17,848 nt of DNA from Patescibacteria group bacterium (GTDB taxonomy: Bacteria; Patescibacteriota; Patescibacteriia; 2-01-FULL-39-33): contig JBAZKF010000002.1 of NCBI GenBank assembly GCA_041650895.1, positions 152,425 to 170,272 of the forward strand. Direction: 5' to 3'. Positions 1-14,934 of the stretch are shown one piece after another (the first letter of the stretch is position 1; each line of letters starts with the position of its first letter). The notes under the pieces are model-generated. The model searched no databases. It was not told the DNA's origin and was given only the letters and a program-made list of their open reading frames with translations. The position numbers were made by a program, and so were the translations under genes.

Positions 1-2
1 TG

Positions 3-755
3 CTGGATCAGGGCAAGAAGTTTTTGGATTTGCTGAAAAAATTCGAAGTTGAGGAATTTCGGTTAATTGAGGATGATCCGATGCCGGAAGGCCAATATGA
101 CGTTTGTTTGGTTGAAGGCAATCCGGTGACCAAGGAGAATATCAAACTGCTTAAGGCCATGCGCGAACGTTCCAAATTTTTAATCGTTTTGGGTAACTGC
201 GCGGCGCTGGGCGGCGTTTGGGAAATTAAGAATTATCAGGATAAGAAAAAAACCATCAGGTATGTCTATCAGAACTCCGCCAAAGTGGAGAATCCTGATA
301 TCAAAGAAGTGGATAATTTTGTTGAAGTGGATTTGACTATTCCCGGCTGTCCCGTAACCGGTAGCGAGATGTTGGAGATGATTTATCAGCTTTTGTCCGG
401 CAAAATGCCGCGTCTTCCGCAAAGCCCGGTGTGTTGGGAATGCCAGACTAAGGGCTATGAATGCTTGTTGCAAAAAGGTATGATTTGTCTGGGGCCGATT
501 ACTTTGGGCGGCTGTCAGGCGGTTTGCCTGAAAAGCAAACAGCCGTGCTGGGGCTGTCGTGGGCTGTTTGAGGGCGCGCAAGTCAAGAATCATTTTAATT
601 ATTTGACGGCCAATTTCCCTCGTCAACAAGCTTATCGCGTGATGGAAGTTTTTGGCGTTCGCGACTCAATCTTAAAGTCATTGGTTAAAGGAAACAAAAC
701 AACTAAAGGATTAAGGAATAAAAAGGGAGGAATAAAGATAAATAAGAAAAAATAA
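3..755 (+). CDS. [NiFe]-hydrogenase small (electron-transfer) subunit, cytosolic group-3 type (delta-like); 5'-partial at window edge
   Basis: The frame is open from nt 3, so the N-terminal proximal-cluster CxxC region must lie upstream of the window (first in-frame ATG at 24). Small-subunit motifs are present: LVEGNP...LGNCAALGG, GCPVTGSEM, and a C-terminal Cys cluster CWEC...C...C...GGCQAVC...CWGC typical of the extra [4Fe-4S] clusters. It sits directly upstream of the large-subunit gene. The C-terminal tail is unusually Lys-rich (KGNKTTKGLRNKKGGIKINKKK). Confidence 0.75.
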   Translation: MDQGKKFLDLLKKFEVEEFRLIEDDPMPEGQYDVCLVEGNPVTKENIKLLKAMRERSKFLIVLGNCAALGGVWEIKNYQDKKKTIRYVYQNSAKVENPDIKEVDNFVEVDLTIPGCPVTGSEMLEMIYQLLSGKMPRLPQSPVCWECQTKGYECLLQKGMICLGPITLGGCQAVCLKSKQPCWGCRGLFEGAQVKNHFNYLTANFPRQQAYRVMEVFGVRDSILKSLVKGNKTTKGLRNKKGGIKINKKK

Positions 756-757
756 TT

Positions 758-1012
758 ATGTCAATAGAAACCAGAACCGGGACGGAGGAAGAATTAACAG
801 CTCGCAATAGAATGCAGAGAATGTTATTCGGTCAGTATTTGGCGGAGGGCAAGGTAAGCGAAACCGACCCCGAGACCATGAAAAAGATTTTTACGCAAGT
901 GAGTGATATCTTAGACGGTGATAATCCGGCTTACGACAGTATTCGCATCGCTTTCAAGTCCGGAGATTATGACGCTACGGTTTCCATGTTAAAGACTGTT
1001 GTTGAATTGTAA
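758..1012 (+). CDS. hypothetical small acidic protein (84 aa) encoded between hydrogenase small and large subunit genes
   Basis: ORF from the six-frame track. Its ATG lies 2 nt after the small-subunit stop, and it ends 12 nt before the large-subunit ATG, an operon-like tight packing. No Cys and no recognisable domain. Coding status rests on position and length only. Confidence 0.45.
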   Translation: MSIETRTGTEEELTARNRMQRMLFGQYLAEGKVSETDPETMKKIFTQVSDILDGDNPAYDSIRIAFKSGDYDATVSMLKTVVEL

Positions 1013-2364: not shown

Positions 2365-2619
2365 ATGCATGATTTTCATTTGGCTGACACGATCTATAAA
2401 GCGATTATCCAGGAAGCCGAAAAAAACAATTTAAAAAAAATCACCAAAGCGGTGATTGAGCTGGGGAGTATTGTGGAACATGGCGAGGAGGTTTTGCCGG
2501 CTAATTTGGATTTTAACATAAAGATGTTAGCAGAGGGAGGGAAAGCGGACGGCTTAAATATTGAAATTGGTAGGTCGTCGGGTAATGAGTGGGTACTTAA
2601 GGAGATCGAAGGGGAGTAA
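2365..2619 (+). CDS. hypA: HypA-like hydrogenase Ni-insertion metallochaperone, truncated variant without the Zn-finger domain
   Basis: Starts with MHD, compared with the canonical HypA N-terminal Ni-binding MHE. The helix-rich N-domain ...KITKAVIELGSI... resembles HypA. The C-terminus GNEWVLKEIEGE aligns to the E. coli HypA C-terminus GDSLIVKSIEVE. It is only 84 aa and has no cysteines, so the CxxC...CxxC Zn module is absent. Confidence 0.5.
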   Translation: MHDFHLADTIYKAIIQEAEKNNLKKITKAVIELGSIVEHGEEVLPANLDFNIKMLAEGGKADGLNIEIGRSSGNEWVLKEIEGE

Positions 2620-2654: not shown

Positions 2655-2692
2655 TTTTCAACACTTCACACAGCTGTGTGAAGTGTTGAAAA
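2655..2692. repeat. 38-bp perfect palindrome TTTTCAACACTTCACACAG|CTGTGTGAAGTGTTGAAAA (19-bp arms, no spacer), likely an operator or strong hairpin between the hydrogenase module and pgk
   Basis: Read directly: the left arm 2655-2673 is the exact reverse complement of 2674-2692. It contains TTCACA/TGTGAA half-sites. Its right arm overlaps the putative pgk -35. Confidence 0.9.
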
Positions 2693-2725: not shown

Positions 2726-3904
2726 ATGAAGATAAAATCAATCCGACAAGCAAATAGTCTCAAAGGAAAAAAGGTGCTCATGCGCGCTGATTTTAATGTG
2801 CCTATAACTAAAAATGGCAAAGTTGGACAAAGCGAGGATTTCCGTATTGTCCGAACTGCGCCGACTATCCAGTATTTAATTAAAAAAGGCGCCAAGATAA
2901 TCATTATGGCGCACCTGGGCCGACCGGAAGGAAAAGTTAACCTTAAATATAGTCTGAAGCCGGTGGCCAAAAGATTGTCGCAAATAATCAAGCAGCCGGT
3001 CAAATTGTCGCCGGAAATAATCGGCGTTAAGACTGATAAATTAATCAGTCAGATGAAAAACGGCGAAGTACTATTGTTAGAAAATATCAGGTTTGATAAG
3101 CGCGAGGAACAAGCGAATAATAATTTTGCCCGGGAGCTGGCGAGTTTGGGCGATCTTTATGTTAATGACGGTTTTGCCGTTTCTCATCGTGACCAGGTAT
3201 CGGTTTCTGTTATTCAAGATTTTCTGCCGTCTTATGCGGGATTATTGTTGGAAGATGAAATAAAGTATTTGGGCGGTGTTTTGAAAAATCCTAAGAAGCC
3301 GCTAGTGGTGATTATTGGTGGCGCCAAGATTTCCACTAAGATCAGGGTAATCAAGAATTTTGCCAAGGTGGCGAAGCGGATTTTACTGGGTGGCGCGTTG
3401 GCCAATACGGTGCTGAAAGTTATGGGCGTGTCGGTGGGTAAATCGCCGATTGAGCCGGAAATGTTCGGCGAGGTTAAGAAATTCAAATTGACTGATAATA
3501 ATATTGTAGTGCCGGTTGACGGCGTGATGGCCAATAATTTTAACGCCAAGAAGGGGAGGATGGATGCCTTAGCCGATATTAAGCCGGAAGAATTGATTCT
3601 GGATATCGGACCGGATACTGTAAAACTATATGAAAATATCTTAAAATCGGCTAAAATGGTTATGTGGAATGGGCCGATGGGTTTAATAGAAAACCCGGTC
3701 TTTGCCCGGGGCACTAGGAGCTTGATCAGGATTTTGGCTGGTTCCAAGGCCCAAACCATTGTCGGGGGTGGAGAAACGGTGCAAATGATTCGTAAAATGA
3801 AATTAGAAAATAAATTCAGTTTTATTTCGACCGGCGGGGGAGCGATGTTGGAGTTTTTGGAAGGCAAGAAATTGCCGGGACTTAAAAAATTAGTCAGCAG
3901 ATAA
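2726..3904 (+). CDS. pgk: phosphoglycerate kinase
   Basis: 392 aa with the typical PGK N-terminus (KKVLMRADFNVP, AHLGRP) and a full-length match to the PGK fold. Glycolytic context. Confidence 0.95.
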   Translation: MKIKSIRQANSLKGKKVLMRADFNVPITKNGKVGQSEDFRIVRTAPTIQYLIKKGAKIIIMAHLGRPEGKVNLKYSLKPVAKRLSQIIKQPVKLSPEIIGVKTDKLISQMKNGEVLLLENIRFDKREEQANNNFARELASLGDLYVNDGFAVSHRDQVSVSVIQDFLPSYAGLLLEDEIKYLGGVLKNPKKPLVVIIGGAKISTKIRVIKNFAKVAKRILLGGALANTVLKVMGVSVGKSPIEPEMFGEVKKFKLTDNNIVVPVDGVMANNFNAKKGRMDALADIKPEELILDIGPDTVKLYENILKSAKMVMWNGPMGLIENPVFARGTRSLIRILAGSKAQTIVGGGETVQMIRKMKLENKFSFISTGGGAMLEFLEGKKLPGLKKLVSR

Positions 3905-3925
3905 TAATTAATAATAACAAAAAAT

Positions 3926-4723
3926 ATGGAAGAACAAAAAACATGTTGTACAACTAATGGCATGCACAAATGCCATTGTGCCAAACATATCGTTTTAGCG
4001 ATTTTGGCTGTCGTTTTAATCGTTTATGTCGGCGTCCTAACGCGCAATGCCTGGCGCACTTATGATTATATCGGCAAGTCGCCGGATATGATTAATCAGA
4101 TTACTGTTACCGGCACAGCCAAGGTCAGCGTTACACCCGATATCGCCGTGCTTTATCTGGGCGTTATCAACGAGGGCGCGACGGTCAATCTGGCGCAAAA
4201 AGGCGTGACCGACAAAATGAATGCGATTATTGATTCGCTCAAGAAAGAGTTTAAAATTGACGCCAAAGATATCAAGACGGAAAATTATAGCGTTAATCCC
4301 AAGTATGATTGGACTGACGGCAGGCAACGGATAATCGGTTATTCCGCCAACCAAAGCGTTACTGTTAAAGTCAGGGATTTTGATAAGACCGGGGATATTC
4401 TGGCCAAGGCCACCGAACTCGGCGCTAACACAGTGTCCGGGCCGACTTTTTCTATTGATGATCCGGAAAAAGCCAAAGCCGAAGCGCGAGAAAAGGCCAT
4501 CGCCCAAGCCAAAGAAAAAGCAAGAATATTGGCTGATCAGGTCGGCATTAAATTGGGCCGGATTATTAATTTTTATGAAGGCGGAACAGAATTGCCGAAT
4601 GCAATCTATAGCCGTAGCGACCTGGCTGTCGGCGCCGGCGAGATGAAAGCGGCAGCTCCGACGATTGAACCGGGTAGTCAGGATGTTCAATTGACAGTCA
4701 GTATCAGCTATGAAATAAATTAG
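3926..4723 (+). CDS. SIMPL-domain (DUF541 / BP26-like) membrane-anchored protein with Cys/His-rich N-terminus
   Basis: N-terminal CCTTNGMHKCHCAKH, then one TM helix (IVLAILAVVLIVYVGVL), then the SIMPL-domain pattern (VTGTAKVSVTPD...YSANQSVTVKV...TVSISYEI). Confidence 0.7.
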   Translation: MEEQKTCCTTNGMHKCHCAKHIVLAILAVVLIVYVGVLTRNAWRTYDYIGKSPDMINQITVTGTAKVSVTPDIAVLYLGVINEGATVNLAQKGVTDKMNAIIDSLKKEFKIDAKDIKTENYSVNPKYDWTDGRQRIIGYSANQSVTVKVRDFDKTGDILAKATELGANTVSGPTFSIDDPEKAKAEAREKAIAQAKEKARILADQVGIKLGRIINFYEGGTELPNAIYSRSDLAVGAGEMKAAAPTIEPGSQDVQLTVSISYEIN

Positions 4724-4730
4724 TAATCTT

Positions 4731-5990
4731 ATGACAAAAATAAAGTCCGTTAAGGCGCGAGAAATTTTGGATTCGCGTGGCAATCCAACGGTAGAGGTTG
4801 AGGTGTGCTTGGATAATGGCAAAAAAGCTTGGGCTGGAGTGCCCTCCGGAGCCTCTACGGGCTCGCGTGAAGCCTTGGAACTTCGGGATGGCGATAAACG
4901 GCGATATGGTGGCCAAGGCGTACTTAAGGCCGTAAAAAATATCAACACGGTTATTGCGCCGAAGTTAATAGGATTGGATCCGGCCAAGCAGAAAGAAATT
5001 GACGAACTGATGCTTAAGTTGGACGGTACGGAAAATAAATCCAAGTTAGGCGCTAATGCTATTTTAGGAGTTTCTATGGCAGTGGCGCGTGTTGCGGCTT
5101 TTAGTCAGAACAAATCGCTTTACGTTTATCTTCACAAAAAATATTGGAACAGCAGTAGAATGTCTTTCCCGGTGCCAATGATGAATATTATGAATGGCGG
5201 CGCGCACGCCGGCTGGTCAATTGATATTCAGGAGTTCATGGTGATGCCGCAACAAAAGAATATTAAGGAAGCGATTCGTTGTGGTGCAGAGATTTTCCAT
5301 GTTCTTAAGAAACTTTTGGCTAAAGCCGGTTACCCAGTAACGGTTGGCGATGAAGGCGGTTATGCTCCCAAGCTGACCGGCAATGAAAAGGCCATGGGAT
5401 TGATTGTTTCTGCTATTAGGGGGAGTGGTTATAAACCGGGCCAAGACGTCAGGATAGCTATTGATTCGGCCGCCTCGGAGTTTTTTGATGATAAAGACAA
5501 ACATTATGACATGAAAGCCGATAAGAAAACCAGAACTTCAAAAGAGATGATCAAAATGTACGGCGAATGGATTAAGAAATATCCGATTGAGTCATTGGAA
5601 GACGGTTTGGCTGAAGGGGATTGGCAGGGTTGGGCGGATTTGACTCAGGCCTTGGGCAGGAGGGTTGCTTTGGTTGGCGATGATTTGTTTGTGACTAATT
5701 CCAAAATTCTTCAGGAAGGCATTAATAAGAAAGTGGCCAATGCCATTTTAATCAAATTAAATCAAATTGGCACCCTGACAGAAACAGTAGAGGCGATGAA
5801 ACTGGCGCAAAAAAATAATTATAAGCTGGCGGTCAGTCATAGGAGCGGTGAAACTCCTGATGATTTTATCGCCGATTTGGCCGTAGCTTCTGGCGCCGAG
5901 TACATTAAAACCGGATCGCTTAGCCGGGGTGAAAGAGTCGCTAAGTATAACCGTTTGATGGAAATCTGGGATGAGATGGGTAAAAAATAA
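4731..5990 (+). CDS. eno: enolase (phosphopyruvate hydratase)
   Basis: MTKIKSVKAREILDSRGNPTVEVEV..., SHRSGETEDxFIADLAV-type motif (SHRSGETPDDFIADLAV), 419 aa. Confidence 0.95.
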   Translation: MTKIKSVKAREILDSRGNPTVEVEVCLDNGKKAWAGVPSGASTGSREALELRDGDKRRYGGQGVLKAVKNINTVIAPKLIGLDPAKQKEIDELMLKLDGTENKSKLGANAILGVSMAVARVAAFSQNKSLYVYLHKKYWNSSRMSFPVPMMNIMNGGAHAGWSIDIQEFMVMPQQKNIKEAIRCGAEIFHVLKKLLAKAGYPVTVGDEGGYAPKLTGNEKAMGLIVSAIRGSGYKPGQDVRIAIDSAASEFFDDKDKHYDMKADKKTRTSKEMIKMYGEWIKKYPIESLEDGLAEGDWQGWADLTQALGRRVALVGDDLFVTNSKILQEGINKKVANAILIKLNQIGTLTETVEAMKLAQKNNYKLAVSHRSGETPDDFIADLAVASGAEYIKTGSLSRGERVAKYNRLMEIWDEMGKK

Positions 5991-6006
5991 TTATAGAATA
6001 GGCAAA

Positions 6007-6037
6007 GCACCCGGATTATTCGGGTGTTTTGTGTTTT
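6007..6037 (+). terminator. Rho-independent terminator downstream of eno
   Basis: GC stem CACCCG/CGGGTG around a short loop, followed by TTTTGTGTTTT. Confidence 0.6.
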
Positions 6038-6188
6038 AAAAGGAAATGTGTTATAATAATTTAAGAATTTATTGTTTTTAACTGTTTACTTTTAAGTAAT
6101 TTTCAGCAATTTTACTTGAAAGTTTTTACGTTATAATCTTTGTTATTTAGTGTTTTAAAATTGAAAGTTCTGGCTTTTAGGCCACTTT

Positions 6189-7766
6189 ATGCCTGTAAAA
6201 TCTAAAAAATCACAAAAAACAGAAATCGCTAAAAAAGTTCTTTTGCTCATATTAGACGGTTGGGGAATCGGCAAAGAAGACGGTTCCAATCCGATTTTTT
6301 TAGCTAAACCGAAGTTTATCAATTCTTTGTATAAGAAGTATCCCTGGACGGAATTATGCGCGTCCGGACTTTGCGTCGGTTTGCCGCCAGACCAGGTGGG
6401 AAACTCTGAAGCCGGCCACATGAACTTGGGAGCCGGACGCATTGCCGATCAGGACGTGATTAAGATTTCCAAACACATCGGTACTGGCGAATTTTTCAAG
6501 AACCCCGCTTTTTTGGCGGCTATTAATCACGCCAAAAAGAATAAAACCGCTTTGCATTTGATGGGTATGCTGTCTAACGGCCAGAGTCCCCACAGCGATC
6601 CTGATCATCTTTTGGCTTTACTGACCTTAGTGCGCAAGCATGAGTTAAAAAAAGTTTATTTGCATTTATTTACCGATGGTCGCGATTCACCGCCTATGTC
6701 GGCCTTGAAATCCATCATGGCTTTGGAGCGTTCGCTTAAACCCAATGAGATCATCTCTACGGTTATCGGTCGGTTTTACGCCATGGATCGCAAGAAAGTC
6801 TGGACCAGGACTATCGCGGCTTACAACGCCATGACCGACGGCCGGGATGCGCATTATGCTGACAGTCCTCAGGCCGGCATCGACCGCGCTTACAATGCTA
6901 ATATATCCGATGAATTCATCGAGCCTATTGTCATTAGGCAAAAAGGAAAAATGACGCCGCGTATCAGCGATAATGACGCCATTATTTTCTTTAATTTGCG
7001 CAGCGATCGCGCCAGGCAAATGGCCAAGCCGTTTGTCCAGCATCAATTTGAAGAAAAGAATCCAGGGTTTGTTAAGCGTAAACGAGTATTGCGTAATGTT
7101 TCCTTTGTGGCTATGACTGATTTCGGACCGGATTTGGATAGTATTCTGACCGCTTATCCTTCGGAAGATTTAAAAAACACCTTGCCTATAGTGTTGAAGA
7201 ACAAGAAGCAGATTTATATCGCCGAGAGCGAGAAATACGCTCATGTGACTTTCTTTTTTAATGGTGGTTATGCTGATCCGGTGGGCGGTGAAGAAAGAAT
7301 TAATATTCCTTCGCCTCATGTGGATAGATACGACAAGACGCCGGCTATGTCCACCAAAGGAATAACCAGCAGAATTATTGCTTCATTAAGAAAATACGAT
7401 TTTATCTGCGCCAACATCGCTTGTCCTGATATGATCGGCCACACCGGCAATATGGAAGCGGCGCAAGAAACAGTTAAGGCTGTTGATAAATACGTCAAGC
7501 AAATCGTGGCGGCCGCGCTTAAGAATGATGCCGTGTTGCTCATCACTGCCGATCATGGCAATATAGAATACAAACTCAATTTGGAAACAGGGGAGAGGTT
7601 GACCGAACATACCACTAACCCAGTGCCATTTATTGTTGTAGGTGGCAGTTTCGGCAAGTCGCTAAAATTAAAGCGCGATGGCGTTTTGGGTGATGTCGCC
7701 CCTACTGTTATTAAACTGTTCGGTTTAAATAAACCCAAGGGAATGAGTAAGAATAGCTTGATTTAA
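6189..7766 (+). CDS. gpmI: 2,3-bisphosphoglycerate-independent phosphoglycerate mutase (iPGM), paralog 1 (more diverged)
   Basis: LILDGWG, GNSEAGHMNLGAG (active-site Ser retained), DGRD, GRFYAMDR, FNLRSDRAR, EKYAHVTFFFNGG, DMIGHTGN and ITADHGN motifs. The GGVHSH region is altered to GQSPHS. Confidence 0.9.
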   Translation: MPVKSKKSQKTEIAKKVLLLILDGWGIGKEDGSNPIFLAKPKFINSLYKKYPWTELCASGLCVGLPPDQVGNSEAGHMNLGAGRIADQDVIKISKHIGTGEFFKNPAFLAAINHAKKNKTALHLMGMLSNGQSPHSDPDHLLALLTLVRKHELKKVYLHLFTDGRDSPPMSALKSIMALERSLKPNEIISTVIGRFYAMDRKKVWTRTIAAYNAMTDGRDAHYADSPQAGIDRAYNANISDEFIEPIVIRQKGKMTPRISDNDAIIFFNLRSDRARQMAKPFVQHQFEEKNPGFVKRKRVLRNVSFVAMTDFGPDLDSILTAYPSEDLKNTLPIVLKNKKQIYIAESEKYAHVTFFFNGGYADPVGGEERINIPSPHVDRYDKTPAMSTKGITSRIIASLRKYDFICANIACPDMIGHTGNMEAAQETVKAVDKYVKQIVAAALKNDAVLLITADHGNIEYKLNLETGERLTEHTTNPVPFIVVGGSFGKSLKLKRDGVLGDVAPTVIKLFGLNKPKGMSKNSLI

Positions 7767-7769
7767 ATT

Positions 7770-9362
7770 ATGACTGATAGCAAAAACAAACGACTTAAAC
7801 CGGTAATACTGATGATTTTGGATGGTTGGGGAGCGGCCCCGCCTTCAAGATCCAATGCCATTACTCTGGCCAAAACGCCGGGGGTGACAGGATTAATAAA
7901 AACTTATCCGGCTTTGACTTTACAGGCCTCGGGCGAAGCCGTGGGCTTGTCTTGGGGGGAAATTGGCAACTCTGAAGTCGGGCATCTTAATTTGGGCTCG
8001 GGCAAGCTGGTTTACCAGAATTTGCCGCGCATTAATAAATCCATTTCTGACGGCGCCTTTTTTGAGAATGAAAAGTTTATCAATGCCATAAAACACGCTA
8101 AGAAAAACAAAGGCAAAGTTCATTTGCTGGGGTTGATTTCTTCGGGCGGCGTGCACAGCCATATTGATCATTTATTCGCTTTGTTGGAGCTGTGTCAGAA
8201 AGAAAAATTCCGCGAGGTATATATTCATGGCGTTTTGGACGGCCGTGACATGCCCTATAATTCCGGCATTGATTTTGTGGAAAAAATAAAAAACAAATCC
8301 GAGGAATTGGGTGTCGGCCGCATTGCCACTCTGTCCGGCCGGTTTTATGCTATGGATCGCGACAATCATTGGGAGCGCATCGTTCTGGCTTATAACGCCA
8401 TGGTCAAAGGTGAAGCCACGGAAAGATTCAGTGATCCGAGCGAGGCGGTCAGCGCTTCTTACGATAAAAAGATCTATGATGAGGAATTTGTGCCGGTAGT
8501 GATCGAAGATGGCGGCCGGCCTGTGGCCACCATCGCCCCCGGCGATGCCGTGATATTTTTTAATTTTCGCGCGGATCGCGCTCGAGAGATTTCCAAAGCG
8601 TTCGTTTTGCCCGGTTTTGAAAAGTTTGAACGGCAATATTTGAAAGATTTATATTTCGTGGCTATGACCGAATACGAGAAGGATGTCCCGATGGAAGTCG
8701 CTTTTCCTCCTGAAACCATTAAAGATCCGTTGGCTAAGGTTATAGCCGATGCCGGCCTAACTCAATTGCATATCGCGGAGACGGAGAAATACGCCCACGT
8801 CACTTTTTTCTTTAATGGCGGTACCGAGCAGGAATTTACCGGTGAAGACAGGGTGTTGGTGCCGTCGCCACGCGTGTCTTCTTATGCGGAGAAGCCGGAA
8901 ATGTCAGCCAAGGAAGTGACGCAGAAAACCATCGACGCTATTATGGCTGATAAGTATGATTTTATTGTGTTGAATTTTGCCAATTGTGATATGGTCGGCC
9001 ATACTGGAGACTTAAAAGCCACAATCAAAGCCGTGGAAGCAGTGGACAGTTGCGTCAAAAAAATCACAGAAGTGGTTTTGGCCAAAGGCGGAGCGGCCTT
9101 AATTACCGCTGATCATGGCAATGCCGAGGAGTTGCTCAATTTACAATCAGGCGAAATAGACAAGGAACACAGCACTTATCCGGTACCGCTTATTATCGTC
9201 GGCAAGGAATGGGAGGGTAAGAACGCCGGTTTTCCGGAAGTGCCTGGCGGTGATCTATCTTTGGTTCAGCCGGCTGGCATACTGTCCGATGTGGCACCGA
9301 CGATTATCAAGATTATGGGGCTCGAACAGCCGGCGGAAATGACCGGTAAACCGTTGATTTAA
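7770..9362 (+). CDS. gpmI: 2,3-bisphosphoglycerate-independent phosphoglycerate mutase (iPGM), paralog 2 (canonical)
   Basis: ILDGWG, GNSEVGHLNLGSG, SSGGVHSHIDHL, DGRD, GRFYAMDRD, FNFRADRARE, EKYAHVTFFFNGG, DMVGHTGD and ITADHGN. Starts 3 nt after paralog 1. Confidence 0.9.
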   Translation: MTDSKNKRLKPVILMILDGWGAAPPSRSNAITLAKTPGVTGLIKTYPALTLQASGEAVGLSWGEIGNSEVGHLNLGSGKLVYQNLPRINKSISDGAFFENEKFINAIKHAKKNKGKVHLLGLISSGGVHSHIDHLFALLELCQKEKFREVYIHGVLDGRDMPYNSGIDFVEKIKNKSEELGVGRIATLSGRFYAMDRDNHWERIVLAYNAMVKGEATERFSDPSEAVSASYDKKIYDEEFVPVVIEDGGRPVATIAPGDAVIFFNFRADRAREISKAFVLPGFEKFERQYLKDLYFVAMTEYEKDVPMEVAFPPETIKDPLAKVIADAGLTQLHIAETEKYAHVTFFFNGGTEQEFTGEDRVLVPSPRVSSYAEKPEMSAKEVTQKTIDAIMADKYDFIVLNFANCDMVGHTGDLKATIKAVEAVDSCVKKITEVVLAKGGAALITADHGNAEELLNLQSGEIDKEHSTYPVPLIIVGKEWEGKNAGFPEVPGGDLSLVQPAGILSDVAPTIIKIMGLEQPAEMTGKPLI

Positions 9363-13035: not shown

Positions 13036-13077
13036 TAAGTTTTATTATTAGTCATTAATTATTAATTATTAGTTAAC

Positions 13078-13108
13078 AAATCGCTTATTTTGGGGCGATT
13101 TTTTTATT
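13078..13108 (+). terminator. Rho-independent terminator after the efflux operon
   Basis: Stem AAATCGC / GCGATTT with a 10-nt loop, followed by a run of 8 or more T. Confidence 0.5.
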
Positions 13109-13168
13109 TTATTTTGTCTAATTTTAGTCATTTATTTATAATTAAATCAAAAATAGGGGATAAAACAC

Positions 13169-13197
13169 TTGACAAAATATTTAAGGTGTGATATAAT
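13169..13197 (+). promoter_or_regulatory. near-consensus sigma70 promoter with extended -10 (TTGACA-17-TGaTATAAT)
   Basis: TTGACA at 13169-13174, a 17-nt spacer, TGATATAAT at 13189-13197. Predicted start site about 13204. It drives the GC-rich island. Confidence 0.65.
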
Positions 13198-13203
13198 AGT
13201 TTA

Positions 13204-13870
13204 TTCAAGATAGTGGTTGTGGATAACTGAACAAAATTCAATTATTGACAATATTATCTTGTGGCAGCTTAAAAGCTGTTTTAAGAGAACCTTCGGGTTC
13301 TTTGTCAGGGCGTCAGGCGGCTTATGTCGTGTGTCGCCCTTGACAAAGGTTCCGAATAATGGAACTCTGAATGTTAATTAAAAAAATATTCGCGGCAGCT
13401 TGTCGCCGCGTCGATATGATTAAGGCGTATGCTTGTCCGCCTAAATCCGATCCAAGGTCTAAAGCCGAGGATCTTAGGAGGAGATTAAGCTGAAGAGGGG
13501 GCCTGGCTTGAAATTATATATTCGCCAATCGCCTTAATTCACTTCTTCAAGTCTTGATTATATCGATGCGGTAGCAATGTCTGGCCGTCTAAGCAGGCGG
13601 GCAAACGCGCGCTGCAAGTACTTTCGAAGGAAGATTTTCCCCACCGCGTCGGGCTTTTATCCCGCCGGATCGGTAGACCTCCTCCTTTCCCCGGGGAGGC
13701 GTTATGTAGCGATACATGCGCCTCCCCCACACGCCTCAGACAGTATGGTTCGAGAGCATATAATCAAATCCTCACAAAGGAAGCTTGGTTTTACGCTTAC
13801 GGCCGGGGTACTGTTTGAGGCGTGTGTTGCAAAAAAGCATTTTTCATTTTACGTTACGAGTAATCTCGTG
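13204..13870 (+). ncRNA. candidate large structured non-coding RNA / structured 5' leader (class unknown), GC-rich
   Basis: No ORF with a plausible translation start. Many GC-rich helices are readable directly: GAACC-UUCG-GGUUC (UUCG tetraloop); CTTTGTCAGGGCG...CGCCCTTGACAAAG long-range helix; CGCGGC...GCCGCG; GGGGAGGCG-[AUGUA-GCGA-UACAU]-CGCCUCCCC (nested GNRA hairpin); CACACGCCTCA...TGAGGCGTGTG (an 11-bp helix enclosing about 65 nt). By eye the GC content is roughly 55-60%, against about 40-45% in the flanking genes. Confidence 0.4.
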
Positions 13871-13880
13871 AAGGAGGCCT

Positions 13881-14078
13881 ATGATAGTACAATGTTGCGT
13901 TTGTCGTAGGGTGCGTTTGTCTGGCGTGTCTGGCGTCTCTTGGGCGGAGCAAGCCATACCACCCGGTGAGGATGTTTCCCATGGCTACTGCCCGGAATGC
14001 GCCGCAAAAGCGTATGAGGGCATGGAGAGGGAATTGACCAACCGGCACCAAAGGAGCCCGACTGATGGCAAAGGGTAA
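13881..14078 (+). CDS. small 4-Cys zinc-ribbon protein (65 aa), paralog 1
   Basis: AAGGAGG sits 3-4 nt upstream of the ATG. Pattern CxxC-x12-W-x15-YCPEC-x4-AY. Low-complexity repeats occur in the N-terminal part, which lowers confidence. Confidence 0.45.
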   Translation: MIVQCCVCRRVRLSGVSGVSWAEQAIPPGEDVSHGYCPECAAKAYEGMERELTNRHQRSPTDGKG

Positions 14079-14253
14079 GTGCCCGGCTTGTTTTAAAATC
14101 GAAGTGGCGCCGGGGCAGTGGAAAAACACCGCCTTACCGGTCAAAGAAGAAACATTGCCCAAATACTGTCCGAGATGTAGCGAGCATAACGCTTATGTCC
14201 GGGAGAGCATTCGGGTATCCAAGGAGTTGGCGGGCGGCGCGTCGGGAAAATAG
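14065..14253 (+). CDS. small 4-Cys zinc-ribbon protein (62 aa), paralog 2, translationally coupled to paralog 1
   Basis: AAGGAG sits 8 nt upstream of the ATG. The start overlaps the end of paralog 1 (ATGGCAAAGGGTAA). Pattern CPAC-x9-W-x15-YCPRC-x4-AY has the same W-to-YCPxC spacing as paralog 1. Confidence 0.5.
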   Translation: MAKGKCPACFKIEVAPGQWKNTALPVKEETLPKYCPRCSEHNAYVRESIRVSKELAGGASGK

Positions 14254-14265
14254 AACATTCTGTTA

Positions 14266-14303
14266 GGAGGAAGCCGCGCGGCTTCCTCCTTTAAAATTGA
14301 TTT
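14266..14303 (+). terminator. strong GC-rich Rho-independent terminator ending the GC-rich island
   Basis: AGGAGGAAGCCGC|GCGGCTTCCTCCT is a perfect 13-nt inverted repeat (14266-14291), followed by TTTAAAATTGATTTTGATTT. Confidence 0.65.
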
Positions 14304-14412
14304 TGATTTATCCACAGCCAAGCTCTTGACACTGTATTGTTTTTATAAAAATTTAATATATAATTTTATATTAAGGGATGACATTAAGCATCAGGCATTT
14401 TCAATCGCACTT

Positions 14413-14450
14413 TCCTAAAAATTTTTTTAGGATCACACTCAAGTGTGATT
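14413..14450. repeat. two adjacent hairpins: AT-palindrome TCCTAAAAA-TT-TTTTTAGGA and ATCACAC-TCAA-GTGTGAT
   Basis: Read directly from the sequence. A GC terminator follows. Confidence 0.6.
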
Positions 14451-14476
14451 TCGAAAATTCCCGTTGCGTCTTCTCC

Positions 14477-14510
14477 GAGTCCCGCCCATGTGGCGGGACT
14501 TTTAATTGGC
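14477..14510 (+). terminator. Rho-independent terminator (GAGTCCCGCC-loop-GGCGGGACTT + TTTT)
   Basis: 8-10 bp GC stem 14477-14500 followed by TTTTAATTGG. Together with the two upstream hairpins this may define a short structured transcript. Confidence 0.55.
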
Positions 14511-14535
14511 TGATTTTGTTAATTGGTGTTATAAT
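14506..14535 (+). promoter_or_regulatory. putative promoter with extended -10 (TGTTATAAT) for the small membrane protein gene
   Basis: TGTTATAAT at 14527-14535, weak -35 TTGGCT at 14506-14511, ATG at 14557. Confidence 0.4.
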
Positions 14536-14556
14536 TTAATCAGGTAATCAAATCAT

Positions 14557-14934
14557 ATGTCACTCAAACAACTAATTATCATCGTCAGTATCGCCACTCT
14601 ACTTTGCTGGGCCAGTTGGTTGCTAGTTATCTTTGAAGTGGATCCGACAACCGCCGGCTTTTACGGCCTACTGATTTTTTATGCCAGCATGTTTTTGTCT
14701 TTGCTTGGTTTGTTTTTCCTGATCAGTTTCGGCTTTCGCAAATTATTCAATAAGCTGGAAATGGAATACAAGCTGGTGGGCATGTCTTTCCGCCAATCAT
14801 TTTTCTTCTCCTTGGCCGTCGTGGGATTCTTTTTCCTGCAGAGCAAGGATTTATTGACTTGGTGGAACAGCATTTTGCTGGTTTTGGCTCTGGTGATTTT
14901 GGAATTTTTCTTTTTGAGTTATCGGAAGAAATAG
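14557..14934 (+). CDS. small integral membrane protein (125 aa, about 4 TM helices), unknown function
   Basis: Four hydrophobic segments. Bracketed by its own promoter and a strong terminator. No recognisable motif. I checked for CrcB-like sequence and found none. Confidence 0.55.
   Translation: MSLKQLIIIVSIATLLCWASWLLVIFEVDPTTAGFYGLLIFYASMFLSLLGLFFLISFGFRKLFNKLEMEYKLVGMSFRQSFFFSLAVVGFFFLQSKDLLTWWNSILLVLALVILEFFFLSYRKK

Follow-up and report, generated by a model that had tools for sequence, protein, structure and literature searches.

A reduced homologue of the hydrogenase nickel chaperone HypA was identified in a 17,848-nt stretch of DNA from a Patescibacteria group bacterium (GenBank assembly GCA_041650895.1, contig JBAZKF010000002.1, positions 152,425 to 170,272), which is referred to in full as the window. 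The gene, here called hypA*, runs from an ATG start to a TAA stop, begins 41 nt past the stop codon of a hydrogenase large-subunit gene, and encodes an 84-amino-acid protein (MHDFHLADTIYKAIIQEAEKNNLKKITKAVIELGSIVEHGEEVLPANLDFNIKMLAEGGKADGLNIEIGRSSGNEWVLKEIEGE) with the N-terminus MHDFHLAD, the C-terminus GNEWVLKEIEGE, and zero cysteines. The protein is a genuine and conserved HypA derivative, reduced to the Ni-binding domain, from which the Zn module has been cleanly lost. An initial annotation made from the sequence letters had proposed a HypA-like open reading frame (ORF) without zinc finger or cysteines, and this was borne out by profile searches, the predicted fold, and alignments.

The Pfam HypA profile (PF01155) matched residues 1-71 of hypA* over profile positions 1-67 of 112 (E 5.4e-6, 26.9 bits), with the C-terminal half of the profile missing. 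Among the NCBIfam HypA models, the first 64-73 positions alone were matched and the scores were far under the cut-offs, such as 23.3 for TIGR00100 against a cut-off of 88.1. Relatives at two loci (L038 and L046) reached 37-42 bits on the Pfam profile, and the Thermococcus kodakarensis HypA 3A43 was retrieved at E 1.4e-6 with a profile made from 26 members of the family. The AlphaFold2 model of hypA* was confident (predicted local distance difference test score 91.6, predicted template modelling score 0.79) and contained a helix at residues 5-20, a strand at 26-33, a second helix at 45-56, and strands at 65-70 and 76-83, consistent with the alpha/beta Ni-binding fold of HypA. When the model was searched against the PDB with Foldseek, all 14 top matches were HypA, at template modelling (TM) scores of 0.68-0.82. 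The best match was 3a43_B (query-normalised TM 0.82, 117 columns), in an alignment that spans the missing Zn domain.

Family members were aligned by MAFFT with the HypA proteins of Helicobacter pylori and T. kodakarensis, whose sequences were verified against the PDB, and with that of Escherichia coli. The block carrying both CxxC motifs was deleted in hypA*, amounting to ~30 residues relative to bacterial HypA, as had been estimated in the initial annotation, and to ~55 relative to T. kodakarensis HypA (TkHypA). The last 11 residues aligned with the final strand of canonical HypA. The C-terminal resemblance claimed earlier was confirmed for this strand, but the sequence quoted for the comparison, GDSLIVKSIEVE, forms the C-terminal end of the HypA paralogue HybF of E. 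coli. The N-terminal Met1-His2-acidic Ni motif was present as described, with a conservative replacement of Glu by Asp at residue 3. Because the defining Zn domain with its two CxxC motifs is absent and the thresholds of the curated hidden Markov models (HMMs) were not reached, hypA* is classed as a variant and not as a plain member of HypA. Databases label such proteins automatically as 'HypA', and the Joint Genome Institute label is 'Zn finger protein HypA/HybF'.

The short form was found repeatedly, with 163 homologues of hypA* identified. Among the 120 matches listed, identities ranged from 67 to 100%, no protein contained a cysteine, 113 were 84-85 amino acids long, and all carried MHD[FL], either at the start or behind a short extension. 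When 1.84 billion representatives were searched exhaustively with the profile, 120 clusters were returned at E ≤ 1e-3, including ~90 short forms and a handful of canonical, Cys-containing HypA proteins (E 1e-6 to 1e-3). The ratio of nonsynonymous to synonymous substitution rates (dN/dS) was 0.08-0.20 at unsaturated dS, which indicates purifying selection on the family. A frameshift or sequencing error, which the initial annotation had itself raised, or a gene remnant of full-length hypA, would account for a Pfam score slightly below threshold (short of the gathering score of 28.9 by 2 bits) and for the missing C-terminal half of the HMM. Such an origin is extremely improbable, however, as the Cys-free protein recurs in more than 160 independent assemblies with dN/dS well under 1, the AlphaFold model is compact as well as confident, the last strand is kept in frame, and no Cys-containing frame was present around the hypA* ORF.

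Short HypA proteins were divided into two classes. Class a, the type found in the window, is defined by its MHD start and comprised 59 clusters at 50% identity. Class b comprised 23 clusters of ~80 amino acids (80-84) that start with MHE, lack the Zn module, and also lack the loop insert described below; its hosts were Dehalococcoidales, Micrarchaeota, and other metagenome-assembled genomes (MAGs) outside the Patescibacteria. The 43 hypA* loci from species-representative genomes were all in Patescibacteria-type MAGs (Buchananbacteria, Uhrbacteria, and 'Patescibacteria group'). The Patescibacteria-type locus also occurs, with unchanged synteny, in many third-party MAGs (L007, L009, L014, L017, and others) that bear the title 'uncultured Gammaproteobacteria bacterium', probably a placeholder or mislabel.

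The Ni ligands of H. pylori HypA are Met1, His2, Glu3, and Asp40, of which His2 and the N-terminal amine are required (PMC5557546). Residue counts for class a were taken over 60 sequences, consisting of the 59 cluster representatives and the window protein. Met1 and His2 were invariant across the class, and Asp3 was kept in all 59 clusters, MHD being the class definition. The loop that joins strand 2 to helix 2 also carries an insert of 4-5 residues in this class, which in the close family is an invariant E38-H39-G40-E41-E42. In the wider class, His39 was conserved in 56/60 sequences, Glu or Asp at position 38 in 51/60, Asn47 in 57/60, and Leu48 in 56/60. The insert turns His-rich in divergent members, with 2-6 His in 14 of the 60 sequences (for example, LAHDGHEEHVED and ESHAGHDHHSLHE), and in both the HMMER and the MAFFT alignments it falls in the loop bearing the equivalent of H. 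pylori Asp40. The MHD start was always paired with the insert, and MHE forms, whether canonical or of class b, were without it. A strict coupling of Asp3 to a His-bearing loop would be expected if both serve one metal site, and the combination of the class-specific loop with the Glu3-to-Asp change suggests a remodelled Ni site.

These patterns also bear on whether the protein handles metal at all. It could be a metal-free assembly chaperone, whose fold holds the N-terminal tail of the immature large subunit and keeps the active site open, with Ni entering spontaneously or from another donor. In the structures of TkHypA with the hydrogenase large subunit HyhL, the Ni domain of HypA reportedly touches the large subunit. 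Peptides at the large subunit's N- and C-termini keep the active site open in that complex, and E. coli hypA and hypB defects are rescued by high Ni (PMC12134894). A chaperone of this kind is nevertheless improbable for hypA*, given that the strict invariance of Met1 and His2, the near invariance of His39, and the repeated His enrichment of the loop form the pattern of a metal site and not of a pure docking surface.

The presumed client of hypA* is the large subunit of a group 3b [NiFe] hydrogenase encoded just upstream. In a survey of 48 loci, each viewed within ±10 kb and covering 692 kb in total, hypA* was located directly 3' of the large-subunit gene in 44, and two others were cut by contig ends; the proximity to hydrogenase structural genes noted in the initial annotation was confirmed. 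The large-subunit motifs of group 3b (RxCGxC at the N-terminal and DPCxxCxxH at the C-terminal side) and the delta, beta, and gamma subunits were all present. The best NCBIfam matches of the subunits were to the sulfhydrogenase HydA/ShyA (alpha) and HydD/ShyD (delta) models, at scores far under the equivalog cut-offs. All 44 of 44 large subunits ended exactly at the His of DPCxxCAxH, and because they have no C-terminal extension, a cleavage step by an endopeptidase would not be involved.

From the predicted Ni-domain fold, the Met1-His2-(Asp3) motif, the purifying selection, and the linkage to the large-subunit gene, we infer that hypA* is probably a single-domain Ni metallochaperone derived from HypA, which binds Ni and docks on this large subunit. 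Ni(II) would be bound by the Met1 amine, His2, Asp3, and the inserted loop, where the most probable ligand would be His39, flanked by Glu38, Glu41, and Glu42. The completion of the site by the loop is a more tentative element of this proposal, and it may or may not hold even if the rest does. In TkHypA, binding of the ATPase HypB-AT is said to recruit an extra His from the Zn-domain region. The loop of hypA* would replace this recruited residue and make the site constitutively complete and of high affinity. Loaded hypA* would then use its Ni domain to dock on the immature large subunit, in the manner of TkHypA on HyhL, and hand over Ni once Fe(CN)2CO has been inserted. With no C-terminal extension on the large subunit, neither a proteolytic checkpoint nor proofreading would follow.

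The remaining maturation genes were searched for in the same 48 loci by tblastn with E. coli queries. No HypB, HypD, HypE, HypF, or HycI was found in the 692 kb, and HypC and HypA were the only proteins matched; as a positive control, the same queries detected HypF, HycI, and HypB at three class-b loci (L049-L051). The initial annotation had reported that hypB, hypCDEF, and endopeptidase genes were missing from the window. This held for all but hypC within ±10 kb as well, and hypC was located on the same contig 819-1034 nt upstream of window position 1.

The class-b loci showed that a Zn-less HypA may be accompanied by the classical machinery. In a Dehalococcoidales MAG, an 80-amino-acid HypA adjoins HypF and the hydrogenase has HycI (L049). 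At another locus, HypA follows the HycI of an Mvh-type enzyme (L050), and at a third a cobW/HypB gene comes immediately after it, together with a group 3b hydrogenase (L051). The large subunits at these loci have C-terminal extensions of 10-36 residues. Zn-domain loss thus recurs and can go together with the classical machinery, and because class-b proteins coexist with HypB, HypF, and HycI, the loss alone does not imply the different Ni-delivery route that the initial annotation had drawn from it.

These neighbourhoods could also be read as pointing to an ordinary HypAB route for hypA*, in which a trimmed HypA with a dispensable Zn domain is fed by a distant HypB-type GTPase or ATPase, with HypD, HypE, and HypF also encoded elsewhere. 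The adjacency of class-b HypA to cobW/HypB and a group 3b hydrogenase, or to HypF or HycI, and the ±10 kb span of the loci are in keeping with this. It is rather unlikely, however, in view of three observations. HypB, HypD, HypE, and HypF were absent from the 692 kb, although HypC, DUF6390, and HydE/HydG cluster in the operon; the clade-specific His loop and the Glu3-to-Asp change suggest a remodelled site; and one 2026 paper places the residues critical for HypB contact in the C-terminal, Zn-binding region (PMC13202556). The same paper partly backs the initial annotation, which had assigned contact with HypB and UreE to the Zn domain, with regard to HypB.

The reading of hypA* as a Ni chaperone of the hydrogenase is weakened by several points in addition to the sub-threshold Pfam score. 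The coexistence of class b with HypB means that Zn-domain loss does not imply HypB-independence, and HypB may be encoded elsewhere in Patescibacteria genomes. His5 was invariant in the close family only, occurring in 27/60 sequences over class a. The register of the Asp40 equivalent shifted by ~5 residues between alignments, lying within the insert by HMMER and 5 residues past it by MAFFT. At L038 and L046, hypA* was found among cell-wall and housekeeping genes, away from hydrogenase genes. The full Patescibacteria combination of MHD with the His loop, no nearby HypB, HypD, HypE, HypF, or protease, and no C-terminal extension suggests a changed route.

Further maturation proteins were found inside the same [NiFe] group 3b operons. 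In 17 loci, HypC was fused to a radical-SAM/BATS enzyme, and the fusion passed the equivalog threshold for HydE (267-281 bits against a cut-off of 254.6). In four of these loci (L007, L015, L023, and L042) the next gene encoded a bona fide HydG, with scores of 574-613 bits (cut-off 312) and the C-terminal CxxCx22C motif; no HydF, [FeFe] hydrogenase, HypD, HypE, or HypF was seen within ±10 kb of the HydG loci. A standalone HypC with an N-terminal MC... occurred together with DUF6390 in ~20 loci, including the genome of the window, and one locus (L042) carried HypC-HydE, HydG, and DUF6390. In 13 loci, a gene for an EamA-family transporter separates HypC from DUF6390. DUF6390, for which 2015 homologues were found, joins a Cys/His-bearing helical domain and a HypC-like domain in a single chain. 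Its invariant residues are C25, H129, H130, H133, C156, H223, and C228, and Cys156 lies just ahead of the first strand, matching the position of the essential Cys2 of HypC. It is conceivable, though doubtful, that these genes form a minimal hybrid pathway, in which group 3b enzymes would mature without HypB, HypD, HypE, HypF, or an endopeptidase; Fe(CN)2(CO) would come from radical-SAM maturases of the [FeFe] type, HydG and HypC-HydE, and/or be assembled on DUF6390, and hypA* alone would insert Ni. A literature search for Zn-less HypA, hyp genes in the candidate phyla radiation (CPR)/Patescibacteria, HypC-HydE fusions, and DUF6390 returned nothing relevant, and neither PMC12727194 nor the Cell 2024 paper on hybrid hydrogenases covers these topics.

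The layout of the operon was extended beyond the window by a 5.4-kb twin contig (L001), which matched 2684 nt of the window with 0 mismatches and reaches 2757 nt further left. It adds a gamma subunit, a methyltransferase-like protein, a 47-amino-acid membrane peptide, HypC (71 amino acids), and DUF6390 (252 amino acids). Across the loci, the conserved order begins with beta, gamma, an optional methyltransferase-like gene, and either HypC with an optional EamA gene and DUF6390 or the HypC-radical-SAM fusion. It continues with the small subunit, optional small ORFs, the large subunit, optional inserts, hypA*, pgk, SIMPL, eno, and two iPGM genes. Coordinates of the individual features are collected in the table.

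Table. Features of the window and of selected related loci. Positions without a locus label refer to the window.
Feature	Position	Strand	Evidence or remark
hypA*, 84-aa Ni-domain-only HypA homologue without Zn domain or Cys	2365..2619	+	ORF, profiles, model, alignment
Met1-His2-Asp3 codons, N-terminal Ni motif (MHD, canonical MHE)	2365..2373	+	Invariant in close family
Glu38-His39-Gly40-Glu41-Glu42 codons, clade-specific loop insert	2476..2490	+	Alignments
Group 3b [NiFe] hydrogenase large subunit, 432 aa	1025..2323	+	RICGICPVVH and DPCIACATH motifs; presumed hypA* client
Group 3b small (delta) subunit	1..755	+	Cut by window edge; true start 67 nt upstream of window
Conserved 84-aa acidic ORF between small and large subunit genes	758..1012	+	7 loci
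Perfect 17-bp hairpin between hypA* and pgk	2655..2692	+	Fold z = -5.1
HypC-HydE fusion, examples	L003:6072-7337, L015:4654-5913, L042:3569-4852		TIGR03956
HydG, next gene after HypC-HydE	L007:4708-6081, L015:5918-7285, L023:6551-7792, L042:4857-6227		TIGR03955
Lower-glycolysis genes and SIMPL-domain gene	2726-9362		pgk, eno, tandem iPGM paralogues (6189-7766 and 7770-9362)
Methyltransferase-like proteins	L001:992-1552, L003:5411-5926, L003:9439-9996		Membrane-anchored, class I
Selfish-looking small genes between large subunit and hypA*	L014:9597-9950, L024:994-1371, L015:9591-9896		23S rRNA intervening-sequence protein, GIY-YIG
Region without long ORF, 1.5 kb	13050-14560		
GC-rich island	~13500-14250		0.51-0.56 against 0.43 overall
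Overlapping small Cys-rich ORFs	13881-14078, 14065-14253		

The acidic ORF that separates the two subunit genes matched no Pfam or NCBIfam family, and different small ORFs occupied this position in other loci. The hairpin behind hypA* possibly marks the end of the operon, but it was rejected as a canonical intrinsic terminator, there being no 3' T-run. The block of lower-glycolysis and SIMPL-domain genes further downstream was in conserved synteny with the hydrogenase operon in ~27-36 loci. Membrane-anchored class-I methyltransferase-like proteins of ~170-185 amino acids recurred in the gap between gamma and HypC and/or that between the large subunit and hypA*. The latter gap also held selfish-looking small genes at some loci. 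These recurrent genes, encoding 23S rRNA intervening-sequence, GIY-YIG, and methyltransferase-like proteins, were rejected as candidate Ni factors. In the distal part of the window, a region without long ORFs contains a GC-rich island and a pair of small Cys-rich ORFs that overlap; no matches were returned when the window, island included, was scanned for Rfam families and tRNAs.

Recent reviews and primary papers (PMC12134894, PMC13202556, PMC5557546) still treat HypA as a protein that invariably has two sites, one for Ni at the N-terminus and the other a Zn(Cys)4 domain with a structural or regulatory part. The existence of a large natural Zn-less family indicates that the HypA Ni domain can stand alone, and hypA* offers a minimal, 84-residue system for studies of Ni selection and hand-off. 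The covariation of MHD with the His loop suggests that the Ni site is completed in another manner here. A Zn-less HypA is moderately surprising by itself, and it matters chiefly as the visible end of what appears to be an unconventional set of [NiFe] maturation genes in Patescibacteria. If HypB, HypD, HypE, and HypF are truly absent genome-wide, the universal need for HypA-F in [NiFe] cofactor assembly would be challenged, and the HypC-HydE fusions, HydG, and HypC-like DUF6390 would, if their proposed roles are true, link the [NiFe] and [FeFe] maturation systems. The findings also bear on the functionality of the widely cited CPR 3b hydrogenases.

Among known systems, hypA* is closest to canonical HypA and HybF (E. 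coli HypA and HybF, H. pylori 2KDX and 6G81, and T. kodakarensis 3A43), with which it shares the Ni-domain fold, the N-terminal Met-His-acidic motif, a gene position alongside [NiFe] hydrogenase genes, and the final beta-strand (...IEGE in hypA*, ...IEVE in the canonical protein). It differs from them in its length (84 against 113-139 amino acids), in the absence of the Zn domain and of Cys, in having Asp3 for Glu3 and the E-H-G-E-E insert, and in having no adjacent hypB. The structures of the TkHypA-HyhL complex (5YXY and 5YY0) were among the best Foldseek matches of hypA*. The client class, a sulfhydrogenase-like group 3b enzyme, is likewise shared; TkHypA, in contrast, has a Zn domain and works with HypB-AT, and in Patescibacteria the large subunit stops at the final His of DPCxxCxxH. 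The class-b proteins, which are auto-annotated as HypA and uncharacterised, have likewise lost the Zn module cleanly and kept the final strand. They differ from hypA* in their MHE start, the lack of the E-H-G-E-E insert, their HypB, HypF, or HycI neighbours, and large subunits with extensions.

A more distant likeness concerns His-rich segments for Ni storage or delivery, which exist in HypB, SlyD, and Hpn. In HypB, these form a His-rich domain (PMC12134894). Divergent hypA* members with 3-6 His in the inserted loop resemble such stretches, although in hypA* the His residues sit on an internal loop of the Ni domain, beside the N-terminal site, and not on the tail of a GTPase or a peptidyl-prolyl isomerase.
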